A stretch of 64,000 bases of DNA. Source: Nannocystis sp. GTDB taxonomy: Bacteria > Myxococcota_A > Polyangia > Nannocystales > Nannocystaceae. The notes under the pieces were generated by a model, which did not search any database, was not told the DNA's origin, and saw nothing but the letters and a program-made list of their open reading frames with translations. The stretch spans positions 260,669-324,668 of the forward strand of contig NZ_JADJNN010000008.1 of the NCBI RefSeq assembly GCF_016714285.1, written 5' to 3'. This document shows positions 4,421-64,000 of the stretch, in pieces; the first letter of the stretch is position 1; every line of letters begins with the position of its first letter. Made by a program: the position numbers and the translations under genes.

Positions 4421-5158
4421 ATGCCCACACCCAAGAACAAGCGAATCGTCGTCCTCCAGTCCAGCTACTCCGCCACCAACGTCATCGCGAACCTGAACCT
4501 CACGATGAACGCGAACTTCACGACGCCCGGCAATGTCACGACGGTCAACCTGCTCGAGGACTCGAGCGGGACCGGGACGGAGGCGACCGAGTATCAGATG
4601 TCGTTCAGCATCGCCGGCGCGGCGGGCAGCGTGGCGATCGGCGCGATCACCCTGAGCTTCACGGGCGAGGGCGCCGAGCTCGCCAGCGGCGTGAGCGTGG
4701 CCAAGACCTCGGCCAGCACCACCACCGTCCCGCGCGGCAGCAGCGGCAGGGTCACGCCGATCGCCACCCCCGACGCGTACCAGGAGCGCGTGTGGTCGCA
4801 GACCGCCCTGAACGGGACCGACGAGCTGGTCGACCAGGTCGCCGGCATCGACATGCGCGTCAAGGCCGAGAGCGGCTACACCGTGACGCAGACCGTGACC
4901 TCGTGGGACGAGGACGAGCTGGTCGTCGCCTACGAGTGGAAGAACGCCGCGGGCACCAGCTTCGCGTCCGGCACGGTGCGGCTCGAGGCGGCCTCGACCG
5001 CGCAGGGCAGCTACACGCTCGGCAGTGTCGTGGTGGTCGACGACCCGCCGCAGGGCGCTTCGCGCCTGGCCGGCGAGACCCGCAGCGCCCTGCGCGAGCG
5101 CATCCGTGGGGTCACCCGCGAGATCCGCCGCCTCCGTCGCGAAGCCCGCGGCGGCTGA
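4421..5158 (+). CDS. Hypothetical Thr/Asn/Ser-rich 245-aa protein with Arg-rich C-terminal tail; no signal peptide
   Basis: Clean ORF with GAGGGA Shine-Dalgarno 7 nt upstream of ATG; locally lower GC; beta-rich composition (NLNLTMNANFTTPGNVTTVNL...), basic tail RERIRGVTREIRRLRREARGG; no recognisable family. Confidence 0.55.
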   Translation: MPTPKNKRIVVLQSSYSATNVIANLNLTMNANFTTPGNVTTVNLLEDSSGTGTEATEYQMSFSIAGAAGSVAIGAITLSFTGEGAELASGVSVAKTSASTTTVPRGSSGRVTPIATPDAYQERVWSQTALNGTDELVDQVAGIDMRVKAESGYTVTQTVTSWDEDELVVAYEWKNAAGTSFASGTVRLEAASTAQGSYTLGSVVVVDDPPQGASRLAGETRSALRERIRGVTREIRRLRREARGG

Positions 5159-5170
5159 GCCAGCGCGCAC

Positions 5171-5213
5171 GCCGGGCGCCGGTCGCTGCGGCGACGCGGC
5201 GCCCTGTTCGTTG
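5171..5213 (+). terminator. GC-rich hairpin (GGGCGCCGGTCGC tgcg GCGACGCGGCGCCC) followed by TGTTCGTTG
   Basis: 13-bp interrupted inverted repeat just after stop of 4421..5158 ORF, weak U-tract. Confidence 0.35.
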
Positions 5214-5271
5214 CGTACACATGCGGGCGCTGCTTGGCCAGCGCCGCGGTCTGCGGTGTATCCTGCCGGCG

Positions 5272-5943
5272 ATGGCTGACGCGGATCCCCCGCTGCTCGC
5301 GGCTTCCGGGCTGCGCCTGCGCCCGGTGGTCGGCCCACCGGCGACGGCCCGCCGCGTGCTGGTGATCGACAACTACGACTCGTTCACCTTCAACATCGTG
5401 CAGTACCTGCTGCAGCTCGGCGCGGTGGTCGACGTGTACCGAAACGACGCGGTCGACGCGGCCCAGGTGCTGGCCGATCGCCCGAGCCACGTGTTGCTGT
5501 CCCCGGGGCCAGGTCGCCCGCAGGACAGCGGCGTGTGTCAGGCGCTGTGCCGCTTGCTGGCGGATCCAGCCGCCCCCGCGATCCCGCTGCTCGGCGTGTG
5601 CCTCGGCCACCAGACCCTGTGCGAGGTGCACGGCGCGACGGTCGAGCGCGCGGGGCGGATCATGCACGGCAAGCTGTCGCCGATCTTCCACGACGGGAGC
5701 GGGGTGTTCGCGGGCCTGCCCTCGCCGTTCATGGCGACCCGCTACCACTCGCTGGTGGCGCTCGAGGCGACCCTCCCGGCCTGCCTGCGGCCGGTCGCGC
5801 GGACCGACCAGGGCGAGCTGATGGGCGTGCGTCACGCGAGCCGCCCGCTGTTCGGGGTCCAGTTCCACCCGGAGTCGGTGCTCAGCGAGCACGGCCACGC
5901 GCTGCTGGAGAACTTCCTCGAGCAGCCTGTGGCGGCACGATGA
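5272..5943 (+). CDS. trpG: Glutamine amidotransferase of anthranilate/aminodeoxychorismate synthase (component II)
   Basis: VLVIDNYDSFTFNIVQYL, catalytic GVCLGHQ, HPES triad motifs; start chosen at ATG 5272 (long ORF 4300..5943 has no upstream stop); adjacent to trpC. Confidence 0.8.
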   Translation: MADADPPLLAASGLRLRPVVGPPATARRVLVIDNYDSFTFNIVQYLLQLGAVVDVYRNDAVDAAQVLADRPSHVLLSPGPGRPQDSGVCQALCRLLADPAAPAIPLLGVCLGHQTLCEVHGATVERAGRIMHGKLSPIFHDGSGVFAGLPSPFMATRYHSLVALEATLPACLRPVARTDQGELMGVRHASRPLFGVQFHPESVLSEHGHALLENFLEQPVAAR

Positions 5944-13264: not shown

Positions 13265-14467
13265 ATGAAGTGCTCCCAGCCGGCGCGTCGATCCGATACG
13301 CTGGAGGTGCTCGTGTCGACAGTGGTGATGGTGACTGCGCTCGCGGCGTGGCTGGCGAGCGGTGGGGGGGCAGCGGGAAAGGCTGTCCCGGGGGACATGT
13401 CGTCTGCGACAGGTGTTGCACCTGTCCTTGCGGACAGCTCGCCCGAGGACCGCACGGCGCGGCTCCTGGCGGGCTTTGCCGACGGCGCCGATGAGCGGGC
13501 GACGCGGGCCCGTCCGGCCTACGCCCCGCGGATCGACCGCGCCTTCGCCCGCTTCGCGGAGAAGGTCGGCGAGCCGATGCAGGCGTGGGCCGCCGAGGCG
13601 CTGGTCCAGACCCCGGGTGAGACCGTGTTCTACCCGTTCGCCGGCGCCGACTTCCCGACCGCGCACCGCATGTACCCGCTGGCGGCGCGCTACGTGTTGA
13701 TCGCGATGCAGCGCGGCGGGCCGCCGCCGGATCCCGCAGCGCAAGGGCGCGAGGCGCTCGGCGAGCTGCTCGCCGGCTACGAGCGCCTGCTCAGCGCATT
13801 CCTCCGGCGCGGCTTCTTCGTCACCGCCGAGATGAACGCGGAGACCGGCAACGACGCGGCGATCCGCGGCATCACCGGCGCGCTGATGGTGTTCGCCGCG
13901 CGCGAGGGCTTCGAGCTGCTGGGCGTCGATCCGGTCGCGCTGGCCGACGACGGGACGCTGACGTTGCACCCCGGCGACCGCACCCGCGCCGCGACCTGGG
14001 ACTCGGTGCGCCTGCGCCTGCGCCGGCGCGCCGACGGGCAGCCGGTGCTGCTCGAGTACCTTCGCGTCGGCCTGTCGAACAACACGCTCAAGCCCGAGAC
14101 GCCGGCGCTGACGCTGGTCACCGGCCTCAGCGACGCGCGGGTGATCCTCAAGGCCGCGTCGCACCTGCCGCAGGACAACAACTTCACGGTGCTGACCAGG
14201 CTGCTGCTGAGCCGCGCGCCGACGATCGTGCAGGACGAGACCGGCGTCGCCTACGACGCGCTGCGCGGCCGCTTCTCGGTCAAGCTCCACGGCAGCTTCA
14301 AGCAGGTCAACCTGCTGTTCGACGGCAGCGACCAGGAGACGCTGATCGAGGCCTACCGCACTGCGGGAAAGATCGATCGCCTGCCGTTCCACGTCGGCTA
14401 CCGCAAGGGCGCGGCGGCCTGCATGCTGGTGGCGACGCGGGCCACGGTGACCAGCGACGCGCGGTAG
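13265..14467 (+). CDS. Hypothetical protein; start uncertain (REP-like palindromes at 13383-13438 lie inside the 5' region; alternative ATG at ~13577)
   Basis: Long ORF with GC3-rich codon usage; no recognisable domain. Confidence 0.5.
   Translation: MKCSQPARRSDTLEVLVSTVVMVTALAAWLASGGGAAGKAVPGDMSSATGVAPVLADSSPEDRTARLLAGFADGADERATRARPAYAPRIDRAFARFAEKVGEPMQAWAAEALVQTPGETVFYPFAGADFPTAHRMYPLAARYVLIAMQRGGPPPDPAAQGREALGELLAGYERLLSAFLRRGFFVTAEMNAETGNDAAIRGITGALMVFAAREGFELLGVDPVALADDGTLTLHPGDRTRAATWDSVRLRLRRRADGQPVLLEYLRVGLSNNTLKPETPALTLVTGLSDARVILKAASHLPQDNNFTVLTRLLLSRAPTIVQDETGVAYDALRGRFSVKLHGSFKQVNLLFDGSDQETLIEAYRTAGKIDRLPFHVGYRKGAAACMLVATRATVTSDAR
13383..13438. repeat. Cluster of three adjacent palindromes of the REP-like family (CTGTCCCGGGGGACATG; ACAGGTGttgCACCTGT; CTGTCCttgcGGACAG)
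   Basis: Read directly; same core as elements at 17492, 32193, 48935 etc. Confidence 0.7.
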
Positions 14468-15885
14468 GCCGTCGGCGCGGCGACCGGGCCGAGCTCGACG
14501 ACGATCACGTGCTCGCCCGGTGCGACGCCCGTGATGGTGAAGGCGCGGCCGAGCGCGGGCGTGAAGGGGCGTCGGTCGAGCCACACGCGGGCCTCGGCGT
14601 CGGCCTCGACCTCGACCAGCAGGCGGCCCGGATCCTGCGCGTGCTGGGCGACGCGCAGGCCCGGACGCGGGCCAGCGTCGTGCTGCAGGCCGGGGCCCTG
14701 CGGCGCGGCCTGCAGCGCGAGATCGAGGGTCGGCCGCACCAGCGCGCGCAGGCGCGGGACGACCAGGCGATCGGTGTCGCCAAGCGCCCCGGGGAAGGCC
14801 ACGGAGGCGACCATGAACAGGCGTCGCGGGCCGCCGCGTTCGACCAGGGTGGCGTTCTCCAGCAGCGCGACGCGGGGGATCCGGCCGACGTTGTTGAACA
14901 CCTCGACGGGCGCGCCGAAGGCCTCGTCGGGGACCCGCCCGAGCCGCTTGCGCGTGATCTTCATGGTCGCCCGCATGCGCTCGACGTCCGTGAGGGAGAT
15001 CGGGAAGCGCTGATCGGCCGGCAGCTCCTCGTGCAGCATCACCCGCCGCTGAACATCGTGGAGCTCGAAGAGGGTCGCGCAGTTGCCCTTGCAGCTTGCA
15101 TGACGGCCGCTGGCCTCGCGCGCCGGCAGCTCGCCTTGCAGCTCGCCCTCGCGGTAGCGCATCGGCGGCGAGCTGCGCAGGGTGGGGCCGTCGCGGTTAC
15201 CGTAGCGGGCCTGGATCGCCATCTCCGGCAGACCCCAGCGCGGCGAGAGGTACTCCTGATTGAGCGCGTCGAAGCCGGCGATCCGGACCAGGCGGTTGTA
15301 GTCCTTGTTCGAGCTGTGCATCAGCGCCTCGTGGACCATGTCGGCGACCTGGCCGCTCTGCAGGCCCTCGGCGTCGCTGAACTCGATCTCGGCGTCGCCC
15401 GTGAGCCCGAGCGCCCCGAGCGTCCACAGGGCGCCCACCGAGGTCGCCAGCTTCACCGTCGAGGCCGGATGAAAGTAATGCCGCGGGACCTCGAAGGCGG
15501 TGTCGCCGAGGCTGTAGTGGAAGTAGCGCGGCTGGCCGACGCCGGGCCGCACGGTCACGACCAGCGCGCGCGAGAAGGCCGGCGGCTCGTAGTCGACGCG
15601 GCGATAGTGCTTGCCGAGGCTGTCCTTGTCGGCGAGCAGGCGGGCCATCGTGAACCAGCCGTCGCGGTCGCGGGCGGGGTCGAGGTTGAGGAGCTGCGGG
15701 TGCTCGGCGCGCAGGGCCAGCAGCGCGGGGTCCGGGGCCACGGGCTGCGCTGCGGGACGCGCCGGCGCTGCGACCTGCGCGGACGCTGCGGGCACCGGCG
15801 CAGCGCCTGGATCTGTCCCCGAGGACAGGCAGGCGCCGAGCACGATCGCCGGGGTCGGCCACCACAGCAGGCGAGGGCGAGGCAC
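14398..15885 (-). CDS. Putative serine hydrolase lipoprotein (beta-lactamase/DD-peptidase-like SxxK...SxN)
   Basis: Lipobox AIVLGAC; STVK and HSSN motifs spaced like SxxK/SxN of penicillin-recognising serine enzymes; 3' end overlaps convergent neighbour by 70 bp; start approximate (GTG near 15885, must be <15914). Confidence 0.45.
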   Translation of the reverse strand: MPRPRLLWWPTPAIVLGACLSSGTDPGAAPVPAASAQVAAPARPAAQPVAPDPALLALRAEHPQLLNLDPARDRDGWFTMARLLADKDSLGKHYRRVDYEPPAFSRALVVTVRPGVGQPRYFHYSLGDTAFEVPRHYFHPASTVKLATSVGALWTLGALGLTGDAEIEFSDAEGLQSGQVADMVHEALMHSSNKDYNRLVRIAGFDALNQEYLSPRWGLPEMAIQARYGNRDGPTLRSSPPMRYREGELQGELPAREASGRHASCKGNCATLFELHDVQRRVMLHEELPADQRFPISLTDVERMRATMKITRKRLGRVPDEAFGAPVEVFNNVGRIPRVALLENATLVERGGPRRLFMVASVAFPGALGDTDRLVVPRLRALVRPTLDLALQAAPQGPGLQHDAGPRPGLRVAQHAQDPGRLLVEVEADAEARVWLDRRPFTPALGRAFTITGVAPGEHVIVVELGPVAAPTAYRASLVTVARVATSMQAAAPLR

Positions 15886-15913
15886 GGGGCGCCGGACGAT
15901 ATCACGGGGCCGA

Positions 15914-16501
15914 TCACGACGCGTCGGGATAGCGGCGCACGAGATAGCGGTAGTACCCGGCGAGCTCGCGCAGCAGCGACCAGGGCTCGCGCAGCTCGAG
16001 CTCGAGCGGCGCATGGGCGCCGTAAACCTGCTCGACGCCGAAGCGCCGCAGCGCCAGCTTGGTGCGCGTGAGGTGGTAGTACTGGCTGACCGCGACGACC
16101 GAGCGGAGGCCGTGCGCGCGCATGTGGGCGGCGACGAAGCGGGCCGTCTCGTAGGTGTTGATGCCGCCGCGATCCTCGATCACGGCCGCCGCCGGCACGC
16201 CGTGCTCGACGAGGTAGCGCTTCATGACCTCGGGCTCGGGCGGGCTGCCCGGATCCTGGCCGCCGCTGACGACGATCTGCGGGACCAGGCCGGCGCGGTG
16301 CAGCGCGAGCGCGGCGTCGAGGCGCAGCTCCAAGCGACGCGAGGGCTCGCCCGCGGCGCTGACGTGGTTGCCGAGCACGACCGCGAGATCCGCGGGCGCG
16401 CCGCGATCGGTACAGCCGTCCGTGCTCACGGCGATCAGGTGCAGCCCTGCCCACAGACCCAGAGTGAGGGCCCCGCGTCGCAGCCAGGTCCGGTACGCCA
16501 C
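15914..16501 (-). CDS. DUF218 (YdcF/SanA/ElyC-like) protein
   Basis: N-terminal TM, VVLGNHV...PQIVVSGGQ...KRYLVEHGVPAAAVIEDRGGINTYETARF motifs of DUF218. Confidence 0.7.
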   Translation of the reverse strand: MAYRTWLRRGALTLGLWAGLHLIAVSTDGCTDRGAPADLAVVLGNHVSAAGEPSRRLELRLDAALALHRAGLVPQIVVSGGQDPGSPPEPEVMKRYLVEHGVPAAAVIEDRGGINTYETARFVAAHMRAHGLRSVVAVSQYYHLTRTKLALRRFGVEQVYGAHAPLELELREPWSLLRELAGYYRYLVRRYPDAS

Positions 16502-53189: not shown

Positions 53190-54938
53190 ATGGGGCCGCC
53201 TGCGCGCATCCCGCGGCGGCGAGCAGCCTTGAGTCGGCTCGCCCCTTCGGGGTACTCCTGGCGTGTGCTGACCGTAGTAGTCCATGAGAAGGGCGGCCAA
53301 ACCCAGCGTTTCTCCTTCAAGGGCGACAGCTTCTCGATCGGCCGCGAGGATGACAACGACCTCGTGCTCGACCGGGTCAACGTGTCGAAGCACCACCTGC
53401 AGTTCGTCAAGGTCGATTCGCGCGTCGACGTCGTCGACCTCGAGAGCACCAACGGGACCTACCTCAACGGGCGCAAGGTGGCCGCGCCGCGGACCGTGCG
53501 GCGCACCGACCGGGTCTACGTGGGTGACTACATCCTCATGCTCGAGGGCGATGACGCGGTCCTCGCGGTCGCCAGTCGCGAGGGTGAGAAGCGGCGCGGC
53601 GGGACCTCGCCGGGCGCGCGCCCGGGCGAGCTCACGGCCGACGACACCGGCCTCGTGACCTCGGCGCAGCGCGTCGCCGCGGCGGGGATCGAGAGCAGCT
53701 ACCTCGACGGCCTGGCCGCGCAGATCCACCAGACCTTGCTCAAGGCGGTGCCGCGGCTCGACCCGCTGCAGGCCAACGACATCAGCGACGACGAGCGCAA
53801 GGAGGTCATCGAGATGGTCGACGGCGTGCTCGCCGACCTGCGCGACTCGCAGCAGATCGAGGCCACCGTCGACATCGGCCCGTTCCGCGAGCGGGTGCTC
53901 CGCGAGGCGCTCGAGTGGGGCCCGCTCGGCGACCTCATGCGCGACGACAGCGTGCGCGAGATCCAGGTGGTCGGCACCGGACCGCTGCACGTGATCCGCG
54001 ACGGCGGCGTGCCGGACCGCCTCGAGCTGCGCTTCACCAGCGACGGCGCCCTCATGCGCGTGATCCAGCGGATGACCCGCAAGCGCGGCCTGCTCGCCGA
54101 GGGCTCGCACGTGCTCGAGGGGACGATCGACCACGGCTTCTACCTCTACGCCCTGATCCCGCCGCACCCGGCGCGGCAGCTGGTGCTGAGCCTCCGGCGC
54201 ATGCGCACCGACGCCAACAACCTGACCGCGCTGGTCCAGGAGGGCGTGCTGAGCCCGGACATGCGCGAGCTGCTGGTGCTGGTGCTGCGGGCCTGTCGAC
54301 GCGTGCTGGTGTGCGCCTCGGGCGGGGTCAACCTCGACCGCTTCACCCGCGCGCTGATCGGCGAGATCCCCGACTCGCTGCGCGTCGCCTGCATCTCGGA
54401 CTCGGGCCGCCTCGGCAACCGCAAGGGTTGGGTGCAGGTCCGTCGCCTCACCGAGGTCGGGGACAAGATCGACCTCCAGCACGTGCTCAACGTGCTGCTG
54501 CGCGGCGGCCTCGATCTGCTCATCTCGCAGCAGTGCGGCCACAGCGACGCGGCCGCGGTGATCGACGCGCTGGCCGGGGCGAGCCGCGGCGCGGTGGTCT
54601 CGCTGTGGGGCATCAACACGGCGCACGCGCTGTCGCGGCTGGCCGCCCTCGGCACCGTCTCCGGCGGTGCGGCCCAGGGCCTGACCCTGTCGCTGGCGCA
54701 CGCGATCGACCTGGTGGTCCGCCTCAACAGCGGGGTCAGCCTCGAGTCGATGCAGGTGATCGAGATCGTCGAGCCGAACACCCGCGCGGACGGCACGATC
54801 GAGTACCGCCCGCTGTTCGTCGCCGCCAAGGCCGAGGACGGCACCACGGAGTTCAGGAGCACGCCGCACGTGGCCGACTTCCTGCGCCGGCTCGCCGACC
54901 AGGGCGCCGAGGTCCCGCAGCGCCTGCGGAGCCTGTGA
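53190..54938 (+). CDS. FHA domain fused to CpaF/TadA (VirB11-like) secretion-ATPase homolog with degenerate Walker A
   Basis: FHA: FSIGREDDNDLVLDRVNVSKHHLQF...TNGTYLNG; ATPase core aligns to CpaF (DDSVREIQVVGTGPLHVIRDGG, IPPHP, GHSDAAAVIDAL..NTAHALSRL) but P-loop replaced by VCASGGVNLDRFT; start approximate. Confidence 0.7.
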   Translation: MGPPARIPRRRAALSRLAPSGYSWRVLTVVVHEKGGQTQRFSFKGDSFSIGREDDNDLVLDRVNVSKHHLQFVKVDSRVDVVDLESTNGTYLNGRKVAAPRTVRRTDRVYVGDYILMLEGDDAVLAVASREGEKRRGGTSPGARPGELTADDTGLVTSAQRVAAAGIESSYLDGLAAQIHQTLLKAVPRLDPLQANDISDDERKEVIEMVDGVLADLRDSQQIEATVDIGPFRERVLREALEWGPLGDLMRDDSVREIQVVGTGPLHVIRDGGVPDRLELRFTSDGALMRVIQRMTRKRGLLAEGSHVLEGTIDHGFYLYALIPPHPARQLVLSLRRMRTDANNLTALVQEGVLSPDMRELLVLVLRACRRVLVCASGGVNLDRFTRALIGEIPDSLRVACISDSGRLGNRKGWVQVRRLTEVGDKIDLQHVLNVLLRGGLDLLISQQCGHSDAAAVIDALAGASRGAVVSLWGINTAHALSRLAALGTVSGGAAQGLTLSLAHAIDLVVRLNSGVSLESMQVIEIVEPNTRADGTIEYRPLFVAAKAEDGTTEFRSTPHVADFLRRLADQGAEVPQRLRSL

Positions 54939-55660
54939 TGCCCGTCCTGTCACGCTTGCCGCGAACGTCGCTCGCTGGGGTCTCGCTGTTGCTCGCCTGC
55001 GCGAGTAAGCCCGCCGAGGGTGTGGGGGCCCCGGCCGCGCCGGCGACCGATCACCGGGCCCGTGGGCACCACAAGCACCACCGCTTCGACAACGCCGAGC
55101 AGTGGGCGGCCCAGTTCGACAACCCGGCGCGCGACGCCTGGCAGCATCCTGAGGCGGTCGTCGCCGCCCTCGCGCTGGCCCCGGACGCGACGGTCGCCGA
55201 CCTCGGGGCGGGCACCGGCTACTTCGCCGTGCGCCTGGCCCGGGCCGTCCCACGCGGCCGCGTCTACGCCGAGGACCTCGAGCCCGACATGGTCCGCTAC
55301 CTCGGTGAGCGAGCGACCCGCGAGGGCCTCGGCAACCTCGTGGCAGTGCGCGGCGAGCCGGCCGATCCGCGGCTACCGGTGGTGGTCGACGCCGCGATCA
55401 TGGTCGACACCTACCATCACGTCGACGATCCGGACCGCTTCTTCGCCGCGCTGCGCGAGCGCCTGCGCCCGGACGGCGCCCTGGTCATCGTCGACTTCAA
55501 GAAGGACGCGCCGGACGACGCCCCCGGGCCGCCCGCGGCGATGCGGATCGCCGACGAGGTGGTGGTCGCTCGCCTCGTCGCGCTCGGCTTCACGCACGTC
55601 CGCACCGACCGCGATCTGCTGCCCTACCAGTACCTGGTCCATCTGCGACGCGGACCTTGA
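54938..55660 (+). CDS. Class I SAM-dependent methyltransferase (lipoprotein signal)
   Basis: LLACAS lipobox; motif I VADLGAGTGYF, motif post-I VYAEDLEP; start overlaps upstream stop. Confidence 0.7.
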   Translation: MPVLSRLPRTSLAGVSLLLACASKPAEGVGAPAAPATDHRARGHHKHHRFDNAEQWAAQFDNPARDAWQHPEAVVAALALAPDATVADLGAGTGYFAVRLARAVPRGRVYAEDLEPDMVRYLGERATREGLGNLVAVRGEPADPRLPVVVDAAIMVDTYHHVDDPDRFFAALRERLRPDGALVIVDFKKDAPDDAPGPPAAMRIADEVVVARLVALGFTHVRTDRDLLPYQYLVHLRRGP

Positions 55661-55772
55661 GCCCCACGTGGACCGCCGGCCATGGACTCGAGTCCATGGT
55701 CAGGCCCGGATCCCGCGAATTCGGCCCGCAGCGGCCTCGGCGGGCTGGCGCAGGACTTGCTGAGCGGAGCCC

Positions 55773-57218
55773 ATGACGCGCGCCCACCTGTGTCCTCTGC
55801 TCTGCCTCGCGCTCCTCCTGCCCGCCTGCGGCGACGACGGCAGCGACGAGACCCTGACCGGCTCGACCGCGGCCACCGAAGGCAACTCGAGCTCGCCCAC
55901 GAGCGGACCGACGCCGACCAGCGGCGACACCGGCGAGCCGGCGAGTCGGCCCAACTGGCACGAGGACATCGCGCCGTTGGTGGCCGAGCACTGCGGCAGC
56001 TGTCACTACGACGGCGGCATTGCGCCGTTTAGCATGGCGAGCTACGAGGGCGTGAAGCCGTGGGCGCCGGCGATGGCGGCCGACGTCGAGATGGGCATCA
56101 TGCCGCCGTGGCACGCCCTCGAGACCGACGAGTGCACGCCGCCCTTCGCGTTCAAGCACGACGCCCGCCTGAGCGACGATCTCAAGGCGCTGATCAGCGA
56201 GTGGTCGGCCAACGGCGCGCCGGAGGGCGACCCCAAGCTGGCCGCGCCGATCCCCGACGCGCCCTCGCTCGACCTGGTGGGCGCGAACAAGACGGCGTTG
56301 ATGCAGTCGGAGCTGACGGTGCCGGCAGCGGGCCAGGTCCGCGACTACTTCAACTGCCTGAGCATCGACCCCGGCAACGCCGGCACCGTGTACCTCGACG
56401 GCATCCAGGTCATCGCGGGCAACCGCTCGATCGTGCATCACGTGCTGATCTACGTCGACACCAAGGGCGACTCGGCGAAGTGGCCGGGCGGCGTCAAGAT
56501 GGACTGCGGCGGCGGACCGGGCGGCGTCGCCGGGGCGCAGTTGGTCGCTGGCTGGGTCCCGGGCGGCATGCCGATCGAGCCGCCGGCCGACGTGGGCACC
56601 GAGCTGCCGCCCGGCACGCGCCTGATCATGAACGTGCACTACCACGCTGCCGCGGCGGCGCAGAAGGACTCGAAGACCGGGCTGGCGCTGCGCTGGAAGG
56701 ACACGGCCCCGGCGTGGTCGTCGCTGTTCGTGCTCGTCGGCGACCCCGGCGTCGGCACCTCGCTCGACGGCCCGCTGATGATCCCCGCCGGCGAGAAGGA
56801 CCACGTCGAGGAGTACTCGTGGAAGGTCAGCTTCAACGGCAAGGACTTCCCCGACCTCGTCGACGTGCGCCTGTGGGCCGCGCTCAACCACATGCATAAG
56901 GTCGGCGTCGACCTCAAGGTGTGGATCGAGGACCGCGACACCGGCGACGCGACCTGCCTGCTGCAGACGCCGAAGTGGGACTTCAACTGGCAGCGCTCCT
57001 ATGCCTACGACACGCCGATCGAGAGCGGCTTCCGCGTCCGCTCCGGCGACACGGTGCGGGTCCGTTGCACCTACGACAACACCCTCGACAACCCCGGGGT
57101 CCAGGAGATGCTCGCCGAGGTCGGCGGCAAGGAGCCGGTCGACGTGGTCCTGGGCGAGGGTACGCTCAACGAGATGTGCATCACCGGCCTCGGCGTAGCG
57201 ATCAAGGGCGGCCTGTAG
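55773..57218 (+). CDS. Lipoprotein with PHM/DBH-like copper type II monooxygenase fold and N-terminal CXXCH motif
   Basis: Lipobox LLPACG; CGSCH; putative CuH ligands HH (IVHHVLIY) + H (NVHYH), CuM ligands HxH (NHMH) + M (NEMC) with PHM-like spacing. Confidence 0.6.
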   Translation: MTRAHLCPLLCLALLLPACGDDGSDETLTGSTAATEGNSSSPTSGPTPTSGDTGEPASRPNWHEDIAPLVAEHCGSCHYDGGIAPFSMASYEGVKPWAPAMAADVEMGIMPPWHALETDECTPPFAFKHDARLSDDLKALISEWSANGAPEGDPKLAAPIPDAPSLDLVGANKTALMQSELTVPAAGQVRDYFNCLSIDPGNAGTVYLDGIQVIAGNRSIVHHVLIYVDTKGDSAKWPGGVKMDCGGGPGGVAGAQLVAGWVPGGMPIEPPADVGTELPPGTRLIMNVHYHAAAAAQKDSKTGLALRWKDTAPAWSSLFVLVGDPGVGTSLDGPLMIPAGEKDHVEEYSWKVSFNGKDFPDLVDVRLWAALNHMHKVGVDLKVWIEDRDTGDATCLLQTPKWDFNWQRSYAYDTPIESGFRVRSGDTVRVRCTYDNTLDNPGVQEMLAEVGGKEPVDVVLGEGTLNEMCITGLGVAIKGGL

Positions 57219-57242
57219 CCCGCGCCTCGACACGGGGGTCGT

Positions 57243-59081
57243 TCAGATCGCCGGTGTCGGGCTGGCGACCGCGCGCGCGGGCGCGGAGAAGGCGAGCTCG
57301 ACGAGGCCCGGCAGCGGGGTCGCCTGCGGGTGCAGCTCCATGCGGCCGAGGCTGCGGTCCATGTCGCGGGCGATCGGTGACAGGCTGCGGCGGCGCTGGC
57401 CGCCCTCGGCCACCTGCGCGGCCAGGCGCTCGGGCGACGGGCGGCGCGGCCATTCGGCCAGGCCGACGGCCGCGGCCAGGTCGGCGCCCTGCGCGGGCCC
57501 GAGGGCGGCCAGCGCCCGCAGGACCAGCTCGTCGAGCACCTCCTCGGTCCACGCGAGCTTCTCCTGCATGAACGCATGGACCTCGTCGGGGCTCATCTCG
57601 CGGGCGAGGTCGAGGTGGAGGTTGGCGAGGATCGAGGGGATCGTCGGCACCTTCACGTGCACCGGGCGGGGCAGGTCCGCTTCACCCGGGACGGCGCGCC
57701 GGGCCCACTGCGAGAGCAGCAGCTGGGCCCGCCGCTGCAGCGCGCCGAACTGGTCGGCCAGCGCCTCGAAGCGGCCGTGCTCGGCCGCGGGCAGCTTGTA
57801 GATGCGGCGAAAGAAGTACTGGCAGAGGAAGGACCAGTAGGTGAAGTCGTCCCAGTACACCTTCGCAGCCATCACCCGCGGGTTGCCGAGGACCGGCCCC
57901 GAGTCGCGGTAGATCTCGATCGTGGCGGCGAACATCTTGCGGTAGAAGCGATCGAAGCGGTCCGCCATCTCGGCCATCTCGGTGGTGTCGCCGCCGCGCA
58001 GGCGGGCCTTGAGCAGCTCCGTGGTGAACGAGTTGGCGACGGCGATGAAGTCGGAGCCCGGCGAGTAGAAGGGGTCGGCGAACACGCCGGCGTCGCCGAT
58101 CAGCGACCAGCGGTCGGCCGAGAAGCAGCGCGTGCTGCCGTGGCTGTAGTGCTTGAGGCACAGGAAGTCCTCGGCCGGCAGGTCCTTGATCTGGGCGTGG
58201 CACAGCGGCTCGTGCTTGGCGACCCAGGCCAGCGAGCGCTCGAAAGTTCGGATCGTGTCGAAGGGGTGAAACTCGTCGTGGACGACGATGCCGATCGAGG
58301 TGTGGGCCTCGCCGCCGGGGCCCGGGGCGAGCGGGATGTACCACAGCCAGTAACCCGTCCCCATGAAGTGCACGGTCGAGTACCAGCGGTTGTGCTCGCG
58401 GTCGCGGTTGTGCCACCAGGCCTCGCTCGCGGGCACGAGGTCGGCGACGTCGACCCGGCCCTTGACCCGCCACCACGACGCGTTGGCGAGGTGGCCGCTC
58501 GGGGTCTTGAGCCCGAGCTTGGTCTTGAGCAGCGCGCGGCGGCCGGTGGCGTCGACGAACCAGCCCGCGCGCAGGGTGCGGGTCGTGCCGTCGTGGGCCT
58601 CGATGTGGACGAGGTGGTCGTCGGCGCCGTCGCTGGCGAGGGTGACGTCCTTGACGCTGTGGCCCTCGAGCAGGGTGACGCCGTCGGCGACGTTCATGGC
58701 CCGCAGGTCGCCCTCGAGGCGGCCGCGGTCGAGCTGGAACGACGGCACCTTGGCCAGCTCGGGCGGGCCGATCTCGGTGCGCTGCTCGAGCGGCAGCGTG
58801 TGCCCGCCGCCGGGATAGAAGCGCAGGCCGTTCTTGAGGTAGTGGTGCGTGCGCAGGTACGTGTCGAGGCCGAGCACGACGCTGAAGTAGTTGGAGGACA
58901 GCTCGACCGAGGACTCGCCGACCTTGTGCGCCGCCGCCGGCAGCGGTCGGGCCTGACGCTCGATCACGGCGACCCGCGCCTCGGGCAGCTCACGCCGCAG
59001 CTGGCGCGCCAGGGCCTGCCCGGCCAGGCCGCCGCCGCCGATCACGACATCGAAGTGTTCGGGTGCTCGCTCGCTGTGCAT
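57243..59081 (-). CDS. Flavin-dependent halogenase (tryptophan-halogenase family)
   Basis: FAD motif FDVVIGGGGLAG, halogenase signature GTGYWLWYIPL (WxWxIP) and FADPFYSPGSD. Confidence 0.75.
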   Translation of the reverse strand: MHSERAPEHFDVVIGGGGLAGQALARQLRRELPEARVAVIERQARPLPAAAHKVGESSVELSSNYFSVVLGLDTYLRTHHYLKNGLRFYPGGGHTLPLEQRTEIGPPELAKVPSFQLDRGRLEGDLRAMNVADGVTLLEGHSVKDVTLASDGADDHLVHIEAHDGTTRTLRAGWFVDATGRRALLKTKLGLKTPSGHLANASWWRVKGRVDVADLVPASEAWWHNRDREHNRWYSTVHFMGTGYWLWYIPLAPGPGGEAHTSIGIVVHDEFHPFDTIRTFERSLAWVAKHEPLCHAQIKDLPAEDFLCLKHYSHGSTRCFSADRWSLIGDAGVFADPFYSPGSDFIAVANSFTTELLKARLRGGDTTEMAEMADRFDRFYRKMFAATIEIYRDSGPVLGNPRVMAAKVYWDDFTYWSFLCQYFFRRIYKLPAAEHGRFEALADQFGALQRRAQLLLSQWARRAVPGEADLPRPVHVKVPTIPSILANLHLDLAREMSPDEVHAFMQEKLAWTEEVLDELVLRALAALGPAQGADLAAAVGLAEWPRRPSPERLAAQVAEGGQRRRSLSPIARDMDRSLGRMELHPQATPLPGLVELAFSAPARAVASPTPAI

Positions 59082-59251
59082 GCCGCAAGTCCTCGCGCCG
59101 CGGGCCTCGTCGGCGCGGGCCAAGGATACGCAAGGTCGCCGCGTTTGCCCGCGCAAAGGTGTGCGTTCGCGCTCTGCGCAGCGCCCGGCCAATCTCCCTC
59201 CTGGCGCGCTGGACGTCGCCTCGCGCCCTCGTTACCATTCCGTACCCAAAA

Positions 59252-59512
59252 ATGACGCGCGCGGAAATTTCTCAGCGGGTGGTCGGCATCCTGGTCAAGA
59301 CCTTCGAGCTCGACCCCGCCGACATTCACCCCGAATCTCGGCTCTACGAGGACCTCGACCTCGACAGCATCGACGCGGTCGACATGTTCGTCGAGCTGCA
59401 CGAGATCACCGGGCGACGCATCGACCCCGAGGTCGCCCGCAAGATCCGCACGGTCGACGACATCGTCGGCCTCGTCGAGTCCGAGCTGGCGAGCGCAGGC
59501 GCGGCATCCTGA
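59252..59512 (+). CDS. Acyl carrier protein
   Basis: 86 aa, acidic, phosphopantetheine-site motif LDLDSIDAVD. Confidence 0.75.
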   Translation: MTRAEISQRVVGILVKTFELDPADIHPESRLYEDLDLDSIDAVDMFVELHEITGRRIDPEVARKIRTVDDIVGLVESELASAGAAS

Positions 59513-59542
59513 GCGCGAGAGCTCCGCCAGCGCCCGTGCCCC

Positions 59543-60202
59543 GTGCCGAAGTTCCTCCGCATCCTGCTGTCCGCGTCGGCCTTCGCGGCGTTCTTCTTCA
59601 CCGCCTCGGTGCTGGGTCGCCTGCTGCTGCCGATCGTGGTCCACTGGCCTGGCTCGCCGGAGCGGCGTCAGGCCCGGCGCCAGCGCCTGCTGCTGCTCTC
59701 GTACCGCAGCTTCATCGGCTACATGCGGGCGCTGCGGCTGATGGGCTATATCCCCGGCGCCGACGACCGGGCGCTGCCCGAGGCGAGTGACGGCGAGTCC
59801 GGCGAGGACCGCAGCCCGGTGCTGCTGCGGATGGTCGAGCACCTGCGCTCGGGTCATCCGCTGCTGGTGTTCCCGGAGGCCTCGCGCTCGCACGAGCGAT
59901 CGCTGCGCCGCTTCCGTCGCGGCGCGATCGAGGCGGCGATCCGCGCCGGCGTGCCGATCGTCCCGGCCTTCATCTCGGTGGTGCCGCCGATGCTGATGAA
60001 GCACCAGGCCTGGTACGACGTGCCGGCCCGCGGCGGGCGCTACACGGTCGAGTTCTTCCCGGTGATCACGACCGCGGGCCAAAGCCTCGACTCGCGCGTG
60101 CTGGCGCGGGAGCTGCGGGCCCGCTACGAGCAGCGCCACGCGCAGATGCTGGCCGAGCGCGACGCCCTCGCGGCCGCGAGCTCGCGCAAGGCGCTGGCCT
60201 GA
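59543..60202 (+). CDS. LPLAT-superfamily acyltransferase (PlsC-like, atypical)
   Basis: N-terminal TM, motif III LVFPEASRS and motif IV VPIVPAF present; HX4D not evident. Confidence 0.6.
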   Translation: MPKFLRILLSASAFAAFFFTASVLGRLLLPIVVHWPGSPERRQARRQRLLLLSYRSFIGYMRALRLMGYIPGADDRALPEASDGESGEDRSPVLLRMVEHLRSGHPLLVFPEASRSHERSLRRFRRGAIEAAIRAGVPIVPAFISVVPPMLMKHQAWYDVPARGGRYTVEFFPVITTAGQSLDSRVLARELRARYEQRHAQMLAERDALAAASSRKALA

Positions 60203-60308
60203 GCCGTAACCTGAGCCGTGGCCTCGAGCTGTGCGCCCGAGCTGTGCGTCTTTGCCGGGGCCGCGGATCGCGTTGACATTGCCGACGCGCTCCGCGAGCC
60301 TCCACCCC

Positions 60309-61577
60309 ATGAGCGAGCGCTTCGATGTCGTGATCGTGGGGGCCGGGCTCTCGGGGGTCGGCGCGGCGTGCCATCTGAGGCGCTCGTGCCCGGGCAAGTC
60401 CTTCGTGCTGCTCGAGGGCCGCGAGGCGATCGGCGGCACCTGGGACCTGTTTCGTTACCCGGGGATCCGCTCCGACTCGGACATGTACACCTTCGGCTAC
60501 GCGTTCGAGCCGTGGAAGGGGGACAAGGCGCTGGCCGACGGCCCGGCGATCCGCGCCTATGTGCAGGCCACGGCCCGCAAGTACGACGTCGACACGCAGG
60601 TGCGCTTCGGCCACCGCGTGACGCGGCTGTCGTGGTCGAGCGTCGACGCCGAGTGGACGATCGAGGTGACCCGCAGCGACGGCAGCAGCGCCCGCTTCAC
60701 CGCCGGCTTCGTGTGGATGTGCACCGGCTACTACCGCTACGACGCCGGCCACACGCCGGAATTCGCGGGCCGCGAGCGCTTCCGCGGGCGCATCGTCCAC
60801 CCGCAGCACTGGCCCGAGGACCTCGACTACAGCGGCCAGCGGGTGGTCGTGATCGGCAGCGGCGCGACCGCGGTGACGCTGGTGCCGGCGATGGCCGGAC
60901 GCGCCGCGCACGTGACCATGCTGCAGCGCTCGCCGAGCTATGTGCTGTCGCGGCCGGCGACCGACGCGGTGGCCCGGGGTCTGCGGCGGGTGCTCCCGGA
61001 GCGCGTCGCGTACGCGCTGTCGCGCTGGAAGAACGTGGCCCTGGCGACGCTGCTGTACCAGCTGTCGCGGCGGCGCCCCGCGGGCATGAAGCGCTTCCTC
61101 ATCGATCAGGTGCAGCGCGCGCTCGGCCCGGATTACCCCGTCGATCCGGACTTCACCCCGCGCTACGACCCGTGGGATCAGCGCCTGTGCCTGGTCCCGG
61201 AGAACGACCTGTTCGTGGCGATCCGCGAGGGCAAGGCCGATGTCGTCACGGACACGGTCGAGTGCTTCACCGAGACGGGGATCCGCCTCGGCTCCGGCGC
61301 CGAGCTGCCGGCCGATCTGGTGGTGACCGCGACCGGGCTCGAGCTGCTGTTCCTCGGCGGCAGCGAGCTGGTGGTCGACGGGCGCACGATCGATGTGGCG
61401 GCCGAGATGAGCTTCAAGGGCATGATGCTGAGCGGGGTGCCCAACCTGGCGTTCACGGTCGGCTACACCAACGCGTCGTGGACGCTGCGTGCGGACCTGG
61501 TGGCGGAGCACGTGTGCCGATTGCTGCACCACATGGATCGGGTCGGGGCGCGCAAGGTGGTGCCGCGGCGCTTGTGA
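60309..61577 (+). CDS. Baeyer-Villiger-type flavin monooxygenase (class B FPMO)
   Basis: FAD GxGxxG VVIVGAGLSG, BVMO fingerprint FRGRIVHPQHWPE (FxGxxxHxxxWP), NADP GxGxxA VIGSGATA. Confidence 0.8.
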   Translation: MSERFDVVIVGAGLSGVGAACHLRRSCPGKSFVLLEGREAIGGTWDLFRYPGIRSDSDMYTFGYAFEPWKGDKALADGPAIRAYVQATARKYDVDTQVRFGHRVTRLSWSSVDAEWTIEVTRSDGSSARFTAGFVWMCTGYYRYDAGHTPEFAGRERFRGRIVHPQHWPEDLDYSGQRVVVIGSGATAVTLVPAMAGRAAHVTMLQRSPSYVLSRPATDAVARGLRRVLPERVAYALSRWKNVALATLLYQLSRRRPAGMKRFLIDQVQRALGPDYPVDPDFTPRYDPWDQRLCLVPENDLFVAIREGKADVVTDTVECFTETGIRLGSGAELPADLVVTATGLELLFLGGSELVVDGRTIDVAAEMSFKGMMLSGVPNLAFTVGYTNASWTLRADLVAEHVCRLLHHMDRVGARKVVPRRL

Positions 61578-61578
61578 A

Positions 61579-61846
61579 CGATCGGGTGCGCGGAGGACGT
61601 CGCGCGGGCCGGTGCGGTCCGGCTGGGCGTCCGCGGAGGCTCGAGAAGCCGGATGTCCGAGAGGGGGGTCGCCCTCAAACACGGCCTGACACACCGTCGC
61701 CGGGGTGATATCCGGGTCTACGCCGGACTCGGTCGACCCCCCTCTCGGCCCTCCGGCAAGTGAAGCCTCCGCTCAAGGACGGTGCGGTCGGCCTCGCCGA
61801 AAGCCGGACCGCACCGGCCCTGAGGGCGCGACATGGCTGCATGGAC
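61579..61846. repeat. Structured inverted-repeat element copy A (~268 bp, itself a long imperfect palindrome)
   Basis: Near-identical to reverse complement of 62953-63223; internal arms GGGCCGGTGCGGTCCGGC...GCCGGACCGCACCGGCCC and CCGAGAGGGGGGTCG...CGACCCCCCTCTCGG. Confidence 0.85.
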
Positions 61847-61891
61847 ATGTCCCTTACGACATGCGGCCCGCGGCCCGCGGTTGGAATCACG

Positions 61892-62896
61892 TCATAAAGG
61901 GATAGCGCAGACGCCCACGTGCTTGAAGCCAAACGGGTTCGGGTCGAACCATTGCACACATGTTTGGTCAGGGTTTGGGCAGGGGTCCATCCTCGTCAAG
62001 TCGCAGAAGGGCTGGCAGCAGCCCTGGGAGCCCTGCATGCACGCGCTCGAGGCGCTGGCGGTGTCGATGCAGACGAGGCCCTTGTCGCAGGCGTTGGGGA
62101 GGTCGCAGGGGTCGTTGGTCTTGCCCATGTCGCCCGAGGCTTCGACGCACTTTACGCTCCCGTCGATGATGAGGCACAACTCGTCGCCGGGGCAGTCCTG
62201 AATCAGCGGATTGCAGACCGGTAGGCAGAGGTTCAGCACGCTGTCGCCGAAGATGTGACACGAGAGGTCACCGTCGCAGATCGGGGCGTCAGGGGTGCCT
62301 GTGCAAAAGGCGACGCAGTGGCCCATGTTCATGTTGTTGACGTCGACGGCCCAGCACATCGCACCCGCTTCGCAGTTGTCGATGCCGCTGACACCGCTGC
62401 CCTCGGCCGTGCAGATGTCGCCGGGGACCTTGTCACCGGTCACAGGGACACATTTGGTGGCGTTCCAGTTCCCGCCGCCATCGTCGGCCCACACGGTGCA
62501 CTTCTCGCCGGGAGCGCAGTCCTGCTTGTACACGTCACACTTGATCGTGCCCCCATTGTCAAAATCGTGGCCGGTGATGAAGCCGCTGGGATAGTCGCTG
62601 GTCGAGCACGCGGTATCGCAGGGGCCCGTGCTGCTGGTGCTTGTGGGGGTTCCGATCGTCGGGGCGCTGGCCTCGGTGCTGCTTGTGGGGCTGGTGGTGG
62701 TGGTGCTGCTGCTGCCGCTGCTGCCGCCCTCCGTGGTCTGCGGCTTCGTGGGGCCGCAGGCGAGCAGCATGGCGACACCCAGGCCCAAGGCTGCGATCGC
62801 GACCGGGGCGGGGGCGTCGAGCAATTCGACGCCGCAGATCGGGCAGCGCGCCTCCACGCGGCGGACGAGACGGTGGCAGCGATGACACGTTCTCAT
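61892..62896 (-). CDS. Cys-rich lipoprotein with N-terminal zinc-ribbon-like CxxC..CxxC and Ser/Thr linker
   Basis: MRTCHRCHRLVRRVEARCPICG then TM/lipobox AMLLACG, ~40 Cys in mature part; lower GC. Confidence 0.6.
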   Translation of the reverse strand: MRTCHRCHRLVRRVEARCPICGVELLDAPAPVAIAALGLGVAMLLACGPTKPQTTEGGSSGSSSTTTTSPTSSTEASAPTIGTPTSTSSTGPCDTACSTSDYPSGFITGHDFDNGGTIKCDVYKQDCAPGEKCTVWADDGGGNWNATKCVPVTGDKVPGDICTAEGSGVSGIDNCEAGAMCWAVDVNNMNMGHCVAFCTGTPDAPICDGDLSCHIFGDSVLNLCLPVCNPLIQDCPGDELCLIIDGSVKCVEASGDMGKTNDPCDLPNACDKGLVCIDTASASSACMQGSQGCCQPFCDLTRMDPCPNPDQTCVQWFDPNPFGFKHVGVCAIPL

Positions 62897-62952
62897 CGCT
62901 GCACGCTATCAGTGCGCACACGTTCTGGGCAGCGTCGCCGGCGAGGGCGGTA

Positions 62953-63223
62953 CGCTGGCCGTGCAGCCATGTCGCGCCCCCAGGGCCGGTGCGGTCCGGC
63001 GCTCGGCGAGGCCGACCGCACCGTCCCTTGGCGGAGGCTTCGCTTGCCGGAGGGCCGGAAGAGGCCTCGACCGAGTCCGGCGTAGACCCGGATTTCACCC
63101 CGGCGACGGTTTGTCAGGCCGTGTTTGAGGGCGAGGCCTCTTCCGGACATCCGGCTTCTCGAGCCTGCGCGGGCGCCCAGCCGGACCGCACCGGCCCGTG
63201 CGACGTCGTCCGCGCCCCGATCG
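62953..63223. repeat. Structured inverted-repeat element copy B (inverted relative to copy A)
   Basis: Reverse complement aligns with copy A over ~265 bp with clustered compensatory differences (CCGGAAGAGGCCTCG...CGAGGCCTCTTCCGG). Confidence 0.85.
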
Positions 63224-63296
63224 CCAAGAACCCCCATGTCGAGGTCCCAGCACCGTGCACGATCGACGGTGCGGGCGGAGCCGCGGTGTCGAGGTA

Positions 63297-64000
63297 CTAG
63301 CCGGTCGAGCTCCGCGGCTTACACACGAGCAAGGTGTGGCTCATGCCGAGCTCGTGGTGCTGGGCCTCGATCTCGAGGCCCGCCGCCTCGACGCAGGCGA
63401 GGAAGGTGGTCGATCGGTACATCTGGCTGGTGCCGTTGGCGATCGCGGTGAAGTAGAGCGAGGTCATCTGCAGGCAGAAGCTGGCGGCCCGGAAGCGCTG
63501 CTGATCCCAGAAGGCCTCGAGGATGTAGATCCGGCCGTGCTCGGGGATCGCCGCGGCGCAGCGGCGGAGGATCGCCACGATCTCGGCCTCGGAGAAGCAG
63601 TCGAGGAACTGGCTCATCCAGATCGCGTCGAAGCCCGGCGGCACCACGGTCGCGGGGTCGAGCAGGTCGGCGGGGTGGAAGCGGACGCGATCCAGGAGGC
63701 CCGCGCCGCGCAGCAGCTCCTCGGCGTTGCGCAGCTGGCCGGGGAGGTCCATCAGCGTGACCTCGACCTCGGGGTCGTGGCGCAGGCAGGCGCGGGCCCA
63801 CTTGCCGGTGTTGCCGCCGATGTCGAGCAGGCGCCGCGGCTTGCGGCGAAACACCAGCGGCAGGGTCGAGGCGAAGGCGCCGTCGGAGTAGAAGTGATCG
63901 AAGCCGAACCACGAGCGGCGGATCGGCTCGGGCAGCTGGGCGAGGCCCTCGTAGACCGTGCGCCACTCGCCGAAGACCTTGAGCCCGGCCGGCGTGCCGG
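63297..64000 (-). CDS. Class I SAM-dependent O-methyltransferase-like protein, N-terminal part outside window
   Basis: SAM motif LLDIGGNTGKWA, LMDLPGQL, C-terminal OMT-like region; ORF continues open to window end (GTG 63852 in track is internal). Confidence 0.7.
   Translation of the reverse strand, partial: GTPAGLKVFGEWRTVYEGLAQLPEPIRRSWFGFDHFYSDGAFASTLPLVFRRKPRRLLDIGGNTGKWARACLRHDPEVEVTLMDLPGQLRNAEELLRGAGLLDRVRFHPADLLDPATVVPPGFDAIWMSQFLDCFSEAEIVAILRRCAAAIPEHGRIYILEAFWDQQRFRAASFCLQMTSLYFTAIANGTSQMYRSTTFLACVEAAGLEIEAQHHELGMSHTLLVCKPRSSTG

Follow-up and report, generated by a model that had tools for sequence, protein, structure and literature searches.

The last 9 kb (54938 to 64000) of a 64-kb window (the whole stretch of DNA analyzed here, 64,000 nucleotides of a Nannocystis core chromosome, phylum Myxococcota) carry genes for a flavin-dependent halogenase, an acyl carrier protein (ACP), a lysophospholipid acyltransferase (LPLAT), and an O-methyltransferase (OMT) that runs off the window edge. 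Of the nine genes of this stretch, only these four belong to a known kind of pigment pathway, and we read them, with a probability of roughly 0.55, as a satellite of a dispersed pathway for a pigment lipid of the xanthomonadin or aryl-polyene (APE) type, the type II polyketide synthase (PKS) core of which is situated at another locus. The evidence consists of homology, motifs, neighborhood statistics, gene lesions, and the lack of PKS genes in and just past the window. The nine genes proved to be real, and every gene named in the original prediction, which had been made from the sequence alone, lies where it had been placed, as judged by third-position GC content, Pfam, and NCBIfam, the basis of our gene calls. 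The compact cluster that the prediction saw is not a co-inherited unit; rather, the 9-kb stretch is a mosaic.

The halogenase and its recurrent neighbors

The halogenase gene (57243 to 59123, minus strand; PF04820) encodes a member of a long (~600-aa) subfamily, here termed HAL. Its first ATG lies at 59081; the public annotation begins 13 codons upstream, giving a protein of 626 aa, and the window halogenase matches MBK7826757.1, which comes from a metagenome-assembled genome (MAG) of a Nannocystis sp., with 100% identity. The GxGxxG motif (G17 to G22), Lys84, and the WxWxIP motif (W246-x-W248-x-I250-P251) were invariant among 12 halogenase relatives, and Lys84 aligned with the lysine of the MalA motif GLKDGLSFY, which we take to be the catalytic Lys108. 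All top matches in the PDB were flavin halogenases (MalA, CndH, PltA, CtcP, and CmlS). With the phenol- and pyrrole-type enzymes among them (CndH, 3e1t; MalA, 5wgv; PltA, 5dbj; CmlS, 3i3l), the window protein shares GxGxxG, the catalytic lysine, WxWxIP, and GDAxxFxDPxxSxG, but the similarity is remote (E values of 1e-11 to 1e-5), and the PDB sequence matches offer no equivalent of a conserved region of ~200 aa at its C terminus. The match to the NCBIfam CmlS model was likewise weak (E value of 1.2e-8; 33.9 bits, with a cutoff of 900). Across the Nannocystaceae and Sandaracinaceae, identity to the window protein amounts to 60 to 72%, with all catalytic motifs invariant. By its motifs, then, this is a flavin-dependent halogenase, for which halogenating activity is predicted. 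The public name of the gene product, Trp-7-halogenase, was rejected, since the nearest solved relatives are of the phenol/pyrrole type and not PrnA or RebH.

To describe the neighborhoods in which such halogenases occur, we drew on at least 599 relatives (599 of 600 genome stretches were confirmed), of which the best 80 were kept; together with two further loci, L001 and L002, these make up the 82 loci referred to below. L001, contig JADKFZ010000004.1 of GCA_016717175.1, comes from a genome described as 99% identical; its proteins are 98 to 100% identical to those of the window region, and it served as the stand-in for the DNA past position 64000. In tblastn searches with the window proteins, the LPLAT had homologues directly upstream of the halogenase at 18 other loci, and the ACP and the OMT had theirs beside it at 7 and 10 loci, respectively. 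The remaining members of the proposed cluster, namely, a methyltransferase (MT1), a copper monooxygenase, a Baeyer-Villiger monooxygenase (BVMO), and a Cys-rich protein, were found beside the halogenase in L001 only. It is thus only the LPLAT, the ACP, and the OMT that recur next to relatives of the halogenase.

A separate count, based on clustering of open reading frames (ORFs) and Pfam matches of the cluster representatives, brought out the wider setting. A ketosynthase (KS) was present at 40 of the 82 loci, a ketoreductase (KR) of the SDR type at 37, and an ApeP-like dehydratase (DH) at 18, followed by an LpxL-type acyltransferase (16 loci), an O-methyltransferase (15 loci), GT2 (15 loci), MMPL (14 loci), and an ACP (10 loci); an AMP-ligase/ApeI-like hotdog cluster, which merges ApeI-like hotdog proteins with AMP-ligase fusions, was represented at 28. 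This family of halogenases is therefore regularly part of APE- or xanthomonadin-like clusters, and the recurrence of a halogenase, an ACP, and an LPLAT in such clusters, to which the original prediction had pointed, is borne out by the KS and KR counts and by the literature (PMC3691225, PMC3949708). The KS-containing loci with halogenase relatives include those of Variovorax (L069), Polaromonas, and other Burkholderiales. In L014, the order by Pfam is GT2, AMP-ligase, ACP, and LPLAT, followed divergently by the halogenase and an OMT; the OMT directly follows the halogenase in L008 to L034, the LPLAT is divergent from it in L009 to L034, and export- or anchoring-type genes of the GT2 and MMPL kinds are present in L013 to L034. 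In a compact type of locus (L019, L024, L029, L032, and L033), a short halogenase paralogue (HAL2) is grouped with the KS and the LPLAT on one side, opposite the long halogenase, the ACP, ApeP, and MMPL.

The ACP, the acyltransferase, and the O-methyltransferase

The ACP (59255 to 59512, plus strand; 85 aa; PF00550, PP-binding) carries the phosphopantetheine site DLDSID and matched NF003757 with 102.5 bits, the cutoff being 65. It is 59 to 64% identical to the ACPs adjoining the halogenase relatives in L019, L024, L029, L032, and L033 and 66% identical to the ACP of a KS-containing Nannocystis locus, L169, which is described below. The ApeD-like LPLAT (59543 to 60202, plus strand; 219 aa) follows it, and both genes are transcribed divergently from the halogenase. 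The match of the LPLAT to PF01553 covers profile positions 62 to 132 only. A DNA alignment with L001 revealed the cause: an in-frame deletion of 183 bp has taken out the segment LIANHPSLIDVLVL, which comprises block I (HX4D, NHPSLID) and block II, leaving block III (LLVFPEASRS, FPEGTR-like) and block IV (VPIVPAFI) in place. With the HX4D block deleted, the window LPLAT is probably inactive. Intact versions are encoded in L001 (280 aa, HX4D block present) and in a related genome, L083 (281 aa). The LPLAT of L169 (290 aa), 38 to 44% identical to that of the window, also has an intact HX4D block (ANHPTLID); given this additional LPLAT at the core locus, the lesion looks like the loss of a redundant copy. 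The block consisting of the halogenase and, divergently, the ACP, the LPLAT, and the BVMO is kept in both L001 and L083 (85% halogenase identity), and in the latter it contains intact LPLAT and BVMO genes and an extra ORF of 126 aa.

At the edge of the window, 4 kb away, the OMT gene (63297 to 64000, minus strand; PF00891) is represented by the C-terminal 233 codons of a FlxJ-like protein of 362 aa, the reading frame being open to the edge. The full-length OMT of L001, which is 98% identical to the window part, covers positions 7 to 351 of the 352 positions of the FlxJ model (E value of 3.5e-148). The ~5 kb that follow in L001 hold the rest of the OMT gene and genes for an OmpA-like protein, a 586-aa protein without a family match, and a patatin/NTE-like phospholipase, but no KS, acyltransferase (AT), DH, KR, or nonribosomal peptide synthetase (NRPS) gene. 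With L001 as a proxy, the search for such genes that had been proposed for ~30 kb downstream thus came out negative over the first ~5 kb.

In L001, the four genes appear to form a string on the same strand (positions 1 to 5536, corresponding to ~63.3 to 69.1 kb in window coordinates) in the order cNMP-binding/NTE-like patatin, 586-aa protein, OmpA-like protein, and OMT. A patatin-type lysophospholipase so close to a pigment-type OMT and to an LPLAT may have to do with the supply of lysolipid or may be a coincidence.

The polyketide synthase core in relatives

The original prediction was correct in finding no ketosynthase, dehydratase, or reductase in the stretch: tblastn searches with cluster members returned none in the 64 kb, and the 48 members of the KS cluster had no match anywhere in the window. 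Using the KS of L029 as a query, we did find a KS in a Nannocystis sp. (63% identity), at locus L169, where the gene order is ApeI-like, HAL2 (523 aa), ACP, KS, LPLAT, and FKBP. The long and the short halogenases share 36% identity. In Sandaracinus amylolyticus, the genes are divided between two loci, L171 (halogenase, HAL2, ACP, and KS) and L002 (ApeI, ApeP, KR, and halogenase). Furthermore, halogenase orthologues with 68 to 72% identity are solitary in N. exedens, in N. bainbridge, and on two metagenome contigs, which implies that the pathway genes are scattered in this clade.

Two side observations concern these loci. The KS locus L169 adjoins genes of the carotenoid type, encoding a lycopene cyclase and a Rieske/DUF5914 protein (13820 to 15982). 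The compact clusters of Myxococcota (L029, L032, and L171) combine two divergent halogenase paralogues, of ~600 and ~525 aa, with a single KS, and an aryl-activating ligase is lacking within 10 kb.

Comparison with known pigment systems

Xanthomonadin clusters hold a halogenase, and xanthomonadins carry zero to two bromines as well as methyl groups (PMC3691225). In Azoarcus sp. BH72, the arcuflavin genes are found in separate clusters, among them the halogenase gene arcA, the methyltransferase gene arcM, the acyltransferase gene arcD, and the ACP gene arcV (PMC3949708); this split provides a precedent for the dispersal of APE-type genes. Like these two systems (Xanthomonas pig/xan and Azoarcus arcA-X), the window encodes a methyltransferase and a phospholipid/glycerol acyltransferase besides a flavin halogenase and an ACP. 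Unlike them, it holds no KS/chain length factor (CLF), KR, DH, XanB2 chorismatase, AMP-ligase, glycosyltransferase (GT), LolA, or exporter gene, its LPLAT is devoid of the HX4D block, and an unrelated BVMO is attached; also, the system is known in Nannocystis from genes alone.

The ape cluster of Escherichia coli and Xenorhabdus likewise encodes an LPLAT (ApeD), two ACPs (ApeE and ApeF), and a methyltransferase (ApeB), its ACP being of the same NCBIfam type, NF003757, as that of the window. ApeD has been proposed to take the chain from its ACP and attach it to a lysophospholipid (bioRxiv 10.1101/2020.12.19.423268). The two ACPs and two acyl-transfer steps of the ape system parallel the two ACP/LPLAT pairs of Nannocystis, one at L169 and one in the window. 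On the other hand, no halogenase is mentioned for the ape cluster in PMC8253772 or in bioRxiv 10.1101/2020.12.19.423268, and the Nannocystis and Sandaracinus loci have a single KS, with no ligase of the ApeH type within 10 kb. Finally, the flexirubin (flx) cluster of Chitinophaga pinensis contains type II fatty acid synthase (FAS)-like genes together with acyltransferase, LolA, GT, and exporter genes (PMC3992019). The OMT, in its complete L001 version, aligns over its full length with the FlxJ model of this system, with a score below the cutoff, but the TAL, 4CL, and DAR genes have no equivalent in the window.

The Baeyer-Villiger monooxygenase and the inverted-repeat cassette

The gene downstream of the LPLAT (60309 to 61577, plus strand; FMO-like/Pyr_redox matches) encodes a type I BVMO, with the fingerprint FxGxxxHxxxWP present as FRGRIVHPQHWP. 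The best PDB matches were PAMO, CHMO, and STMO (E value of 1e-31 for the intact L083 copy against PAMO), with which the window protein shares this fingerprint and the two Rossmann motifs, GAGLSG and GSGATA. The window copy differs in ending prematurely (...VVPRRL): alignment with orthologues of 478 to 500 aa showed it to be ~62 C-terminal residues short and to have lost the segment SGY..R...FPKQG...PW...QNY, which is conserved in the orthologues. The L001 protein is ~20 aa short, and those of L083 (483 aa) and of the metagenomes are complete. As far as its sequence allows one to judge, the window BVMO is likely impaired. Exact-sequence searches with this BVMO and with the copper monooxygenase of the window gave no match. 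The LPLAT and BVMO genes of the original prediction are thus present, but the former is without its HX4D block and the latter is C-terminally short.

Neighborhood analysis placed the BVMO outside the pathway. This family is very common in soil; at least 589 metagenome stretches contained relatives, and of these we took the best 80, with 57 to 66% identity to the window BVMO. None of the 80 loci contained the ACP, the LPLAT, the halogenase, or the OMT, and clustering of the neighborhoods around these 80 relatives yielded no conserved partner. The BVMO is a lineage-specific neighbor and not a pathway member. Together with the copper monooxygenase, which the original prediction had also included, it was found beside halogenase relatives only in close Nannocystis kin.

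Immediately following the BVMO is an inserted cassette (61585 to 63218), delimited by inverted repeats of 263 nucleotides (nt) (61585 to 61847 and 62956 to 63218) that are 90% complementary, are separated by 1.1 kb, and each hold an internal hairpin of 42 nt. The 64-kb window has two copies of the arm, and the same two are present in L001. The left arm abuts the BVMO gene and supplies its premature end; compared with L001, the left arm of the window is ~17 nt longer, with an extension resembling the right flank, and 131 nt of BVMO coding sequence are lost. The whole has the look of an inserted or invertible cassette that lacks a transposase. Inside it lies a gene for a Cys-rich membrane protein or lipoprotein (61892 to 62896, minus strand) without a Pfam or NCBIfam match, the product of which has ~40 cysteines. 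Neither the cassette nor the Cys-rich gene is present in L083. In L001 (5935 to 6937), the Cys-rich gene is annotated as two genes, of 109 and 213 aa, owing to a 2-bp difference in a repeat rich in GGT and GCT, probably reflecting either an indel error in one of the assemblies or a real frameshift.

Proposed pathway and alternative explanations

In the scheme that we infer, the chemistry is taken from what is known of the families, and the substrates, the order of steps, the halide, and the presence of a core locus in the source genome are all conditional. On an ACP, the core locus would assemble an acyl chain, possibly an aryl-polyenoyl one, and two flavin halogenases, the window HAL and HAL2, would halogenate that chain. 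The window enzyme, using FADH2, O2, and a halide, might generate hypohalous acid to be captured by Lys84 and thereby chlorinate or brominate the ACP-tethered chain or its aromatic head. A phenol could then be O-methylated by the FlxJ-like enzyme, and an ApeD-type LPLAT would hand the finished chain over from the ACP to a lysophospholipid and so fix it to the membrane. The window LPLAT being probably dead, this transfer would rest on its paralogue at the core locus.

Several observations weigh against the reading of the four genes as such a satellite. PKS genes are lacking in the window and in the ~5 kb past it, and members of the KR, ApeP, AMP-ligase/ApeI, GT2, MMPL, and LpxL-type clusters are also without a match in the 64 kb. 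The core locus was found in another Nannocystis MAG and not in the source genome, and no aryl-activating ligase was called within 10 kb in L169 or L171, so that the "aryl" part of the name is not established. Halogenase orthologues with at least 60% identity are mostly solitary in unrelated contexts (L004, L085, L087, and L088); accordingly, the link of HAL to the ACP and the LPLAT seen here could be secondary. With respect to the OMT, the L001 protein scored 493.2 bits against NF053543 ("FlxJ family methyltransferase"), under the cutoff of 560, and is therefore FlxJ-like rather than an equivalog; in L001, moreover, it looks like the last gene of the string formed with the patatin, 586-aa, and OmpA-like genes, and in L083 it is not near the halogenase. 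Lastly, the lesions in the LPLAT and the BVMO argue that part of the locus is out of use.

These lesions are central to a different explanation, according to which an ancestral APE-like cluster has been broken up, its remnants are drifting toward pseudogenes, no product is made, and the adjacency of the genes is due to chance. The 183-bp deletion of the LPLAT HX4D block, the shortening of the BVMO at the inverted-repeat cassette (in L001 as well as in the window), and the housekeeping and signaling surroundings would all fit, and, according to PMC6226438, APE clusters are often lost in descendants of cluster-bearing ancestors. Still, the halogenase is intact and strongly conserved down to its invariant catalytic motifs, the ACP and the OMT are intact and 98 to 100% identical between MAGs, and the LPLAT deletion is in frame; we consider complete decay unlikely. 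The small lipid-modifying system that the original prediction offered as an option is not favored either and strikes us as rather improbable. Such a self-contained module would take an FAS-derived chain on the ACP, modify it by means of the halogenase and the BVMO, and install it in phospholipid through the LPLAT, all without a PKS. The gene arrangement would suit it, the ACP, LPLAT, and BVMO genes being codirectional (with gaps of 30 nt between the first two and 106 nt between the last two) and divergent from the halogenase, as would the conservation of this block in intact form in L083. CmlS-type flavin halogenases, moreover, can act on activated aliphatic carbons, although the match to the NCBIfam CmlS model is far below its cutoff. 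However, the best 80 of the at least 589 BVMO relatives were never accompanied by an ACP, an LPLAT, or a halogenase or by any conserved neighbor, the ACP and the LPLAT have their orthologues in KS-containing clusters, an acyl-loading enzyme is lacking, and two of the four enzymes are damaged in the window.

The one-KS loci of Nannocystis and Sandaracinus allow yet another interpretation, namely, that their genes constitute a minimal dispersed system, distinct from a classical aryl-polyene pathway, that makes a halogenated, possibly Baeyer-Villiger-oxygenated, unsaturated acyl chain in phospholipids. Its parts would be an ApeI-like DH, the short HAL, an ACP, the KS, and an LPLAT at one locus and the long HAL, an ACP, an LPLAT (with the BVMO), and the FlxJ-like OMT at the other; the idea derives from the presence of one KS and two halogenases with no aryl-activating ligase or CLF in view. 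We regard it as decidedly doubtful; if true, it would amount to a class of halogenated lipids not yet described for Myxococcota. Hardly credible, finally, is the suggestion that the stretch is the margin of a large PKS/NRPS cluster running past 64000, even though the OMT is cut by the window end and myxobacteria are rich in large biosynthetic gene clusters (BGCs). The gene content past the OMT in L001 largely refutes it for the first ~5 kb. In L083, the genes downstream encode a sigma factor, an inhibitor_I36 protein, and an MmeI-type methylase. On the upstream side of the window, positions 19 to 53 kb encode Lon, DnaK, PurH, PurD, Ser/Thr kinases, and a PAS histidine kinase, and the housekeeping and signaling genes there also include those for a sigma-54 activator, a peroxiredoxin, and a CcmH-like protein.

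In the Nannocystaceae and Sandaracinaceae, the xanthomonadin-like APE genes are dispersed and their ACP/LPLAT pairs duplicated, and one LPLAT copy can apparently lose its catalytic block in frame while the halogenase remains strongly constrained. For genome miners, the implication is that this stretch should not be taken as a new compact halogenase BGC; a neighborhood view in the style of antiSMASH would overmerge unrelated neighbors and miss the true partners at the other locus. Current understanding is not overturned by these findings.

Flanking genes and sequence context

GC content is uniform across the window (69 to 74%), and horizontal transfer of the block was rejected on these grounds (0.69 to 0.73). 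Rfam gave no match within 54 to 64 kb, and a scan for sigma-70 promoters produced none; terminator-like matches fall inside genes and are hence uninformative.

The first gene of the stretch, that for the class I S-adenosylmethionine (SAM) methyltransferase MT1 (54938 to 55660, plus strand; Methyltransf_25/11/12, E value of 1e-13), has an ATG that overlaps the TGA of an upstream FHA/TadA-like ATPase gene by 1 nt (TGATG). The same coupling is seen in L083, where genes for a kinase, an ADYC-domain protein, and the copper monooxygenase lie between MT1 and the halogenase. Because of this translational coupling to the FHA gene, we place MT1 outside the pigment set, as the last gene of the upstream operon, so that only one of the two methyltransferases that had been counted as cluster members remains. 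At 53190 to 55660 (plus strand), an FHA-domain/TadA-CpaF-like secretion ATPase is thus combined with MT1, the lipoprotein signal of which would direct it to a place where one does not expect an enzyme that depends on SAM. The original prediction had remarked on lipoprotein signals in several members; such signals are present in MT1 (lipobox LLLAC) and in the copper monooxygenase (LLPAC), and in the Cys-rich protein a zinc-ribbon-like N terminus (CxxC..CxxC) and one hydrophobic segment come before an LLAC instead.

Between MT1 and the halogenase lies the gene for the copper monooxygenase (55773 to 57218, plus strand), a lipoprotein of 481 aa assigned by family profile to the peptidylglycine alpha-hydroxylating monooxygenase (PHM)/dopamine beta-hydroxylase (DBH)-like enzymes. 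As a single sequence, it matched the two Cu2_monoox domains in the right order with subthreshold scores (22.5, with a cutoff of 23, and 21.2, with a cutoff of 30) and matched no solved structure; a single-sequence AlphaFold model was unusable (pLDDT of 37), and a profile search of the PDB was used instead. With a profile built from 39 family sequences, PHM (2e-13) and DBH (9e-11) were recovered, as was, weakly, cytochrome c (0.005). Strict or almost strict conservation was seen in the 39-sequence alignment for CxxCH, MPP, HH222/223, H289, H373-x-H375, and M468. The protein has in common with PHM and DBH the two domains and the ligands of CuH (HH..H) and CuM (HxH..M) but, unlike them, is a lipoprotein of bacteria and carries at its N terminus a cytochrome c-like domain with an invariant CxxCH. 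By these profiles and ligands, it is a predicted exported PHM-like enzyme fused to a monoheme c domain, and the heme domain could act as an electron donor in place of ascorbate. A HMMER search of 1.84 billion representatives returned 9,722 members at 50% clustering; bacteria thus hold a large uncharacterized family of cytochrome c-fused PHM-like copper monooxygenases. With respect to the halogenase set, the copper monooxygenase is an unrelated neighbor.

In L083, an Eco57I-type gene is situated between the copper monooxygenase and the halogenase. More generally, restriction-modification genes of the MmeI/Eco57I type adjoin the halogenase in L083 (11816 to 13474 and 1 to 1963) and in L085 (380 to 3001), which suggests that this neighborhood is an insertion hotspot.

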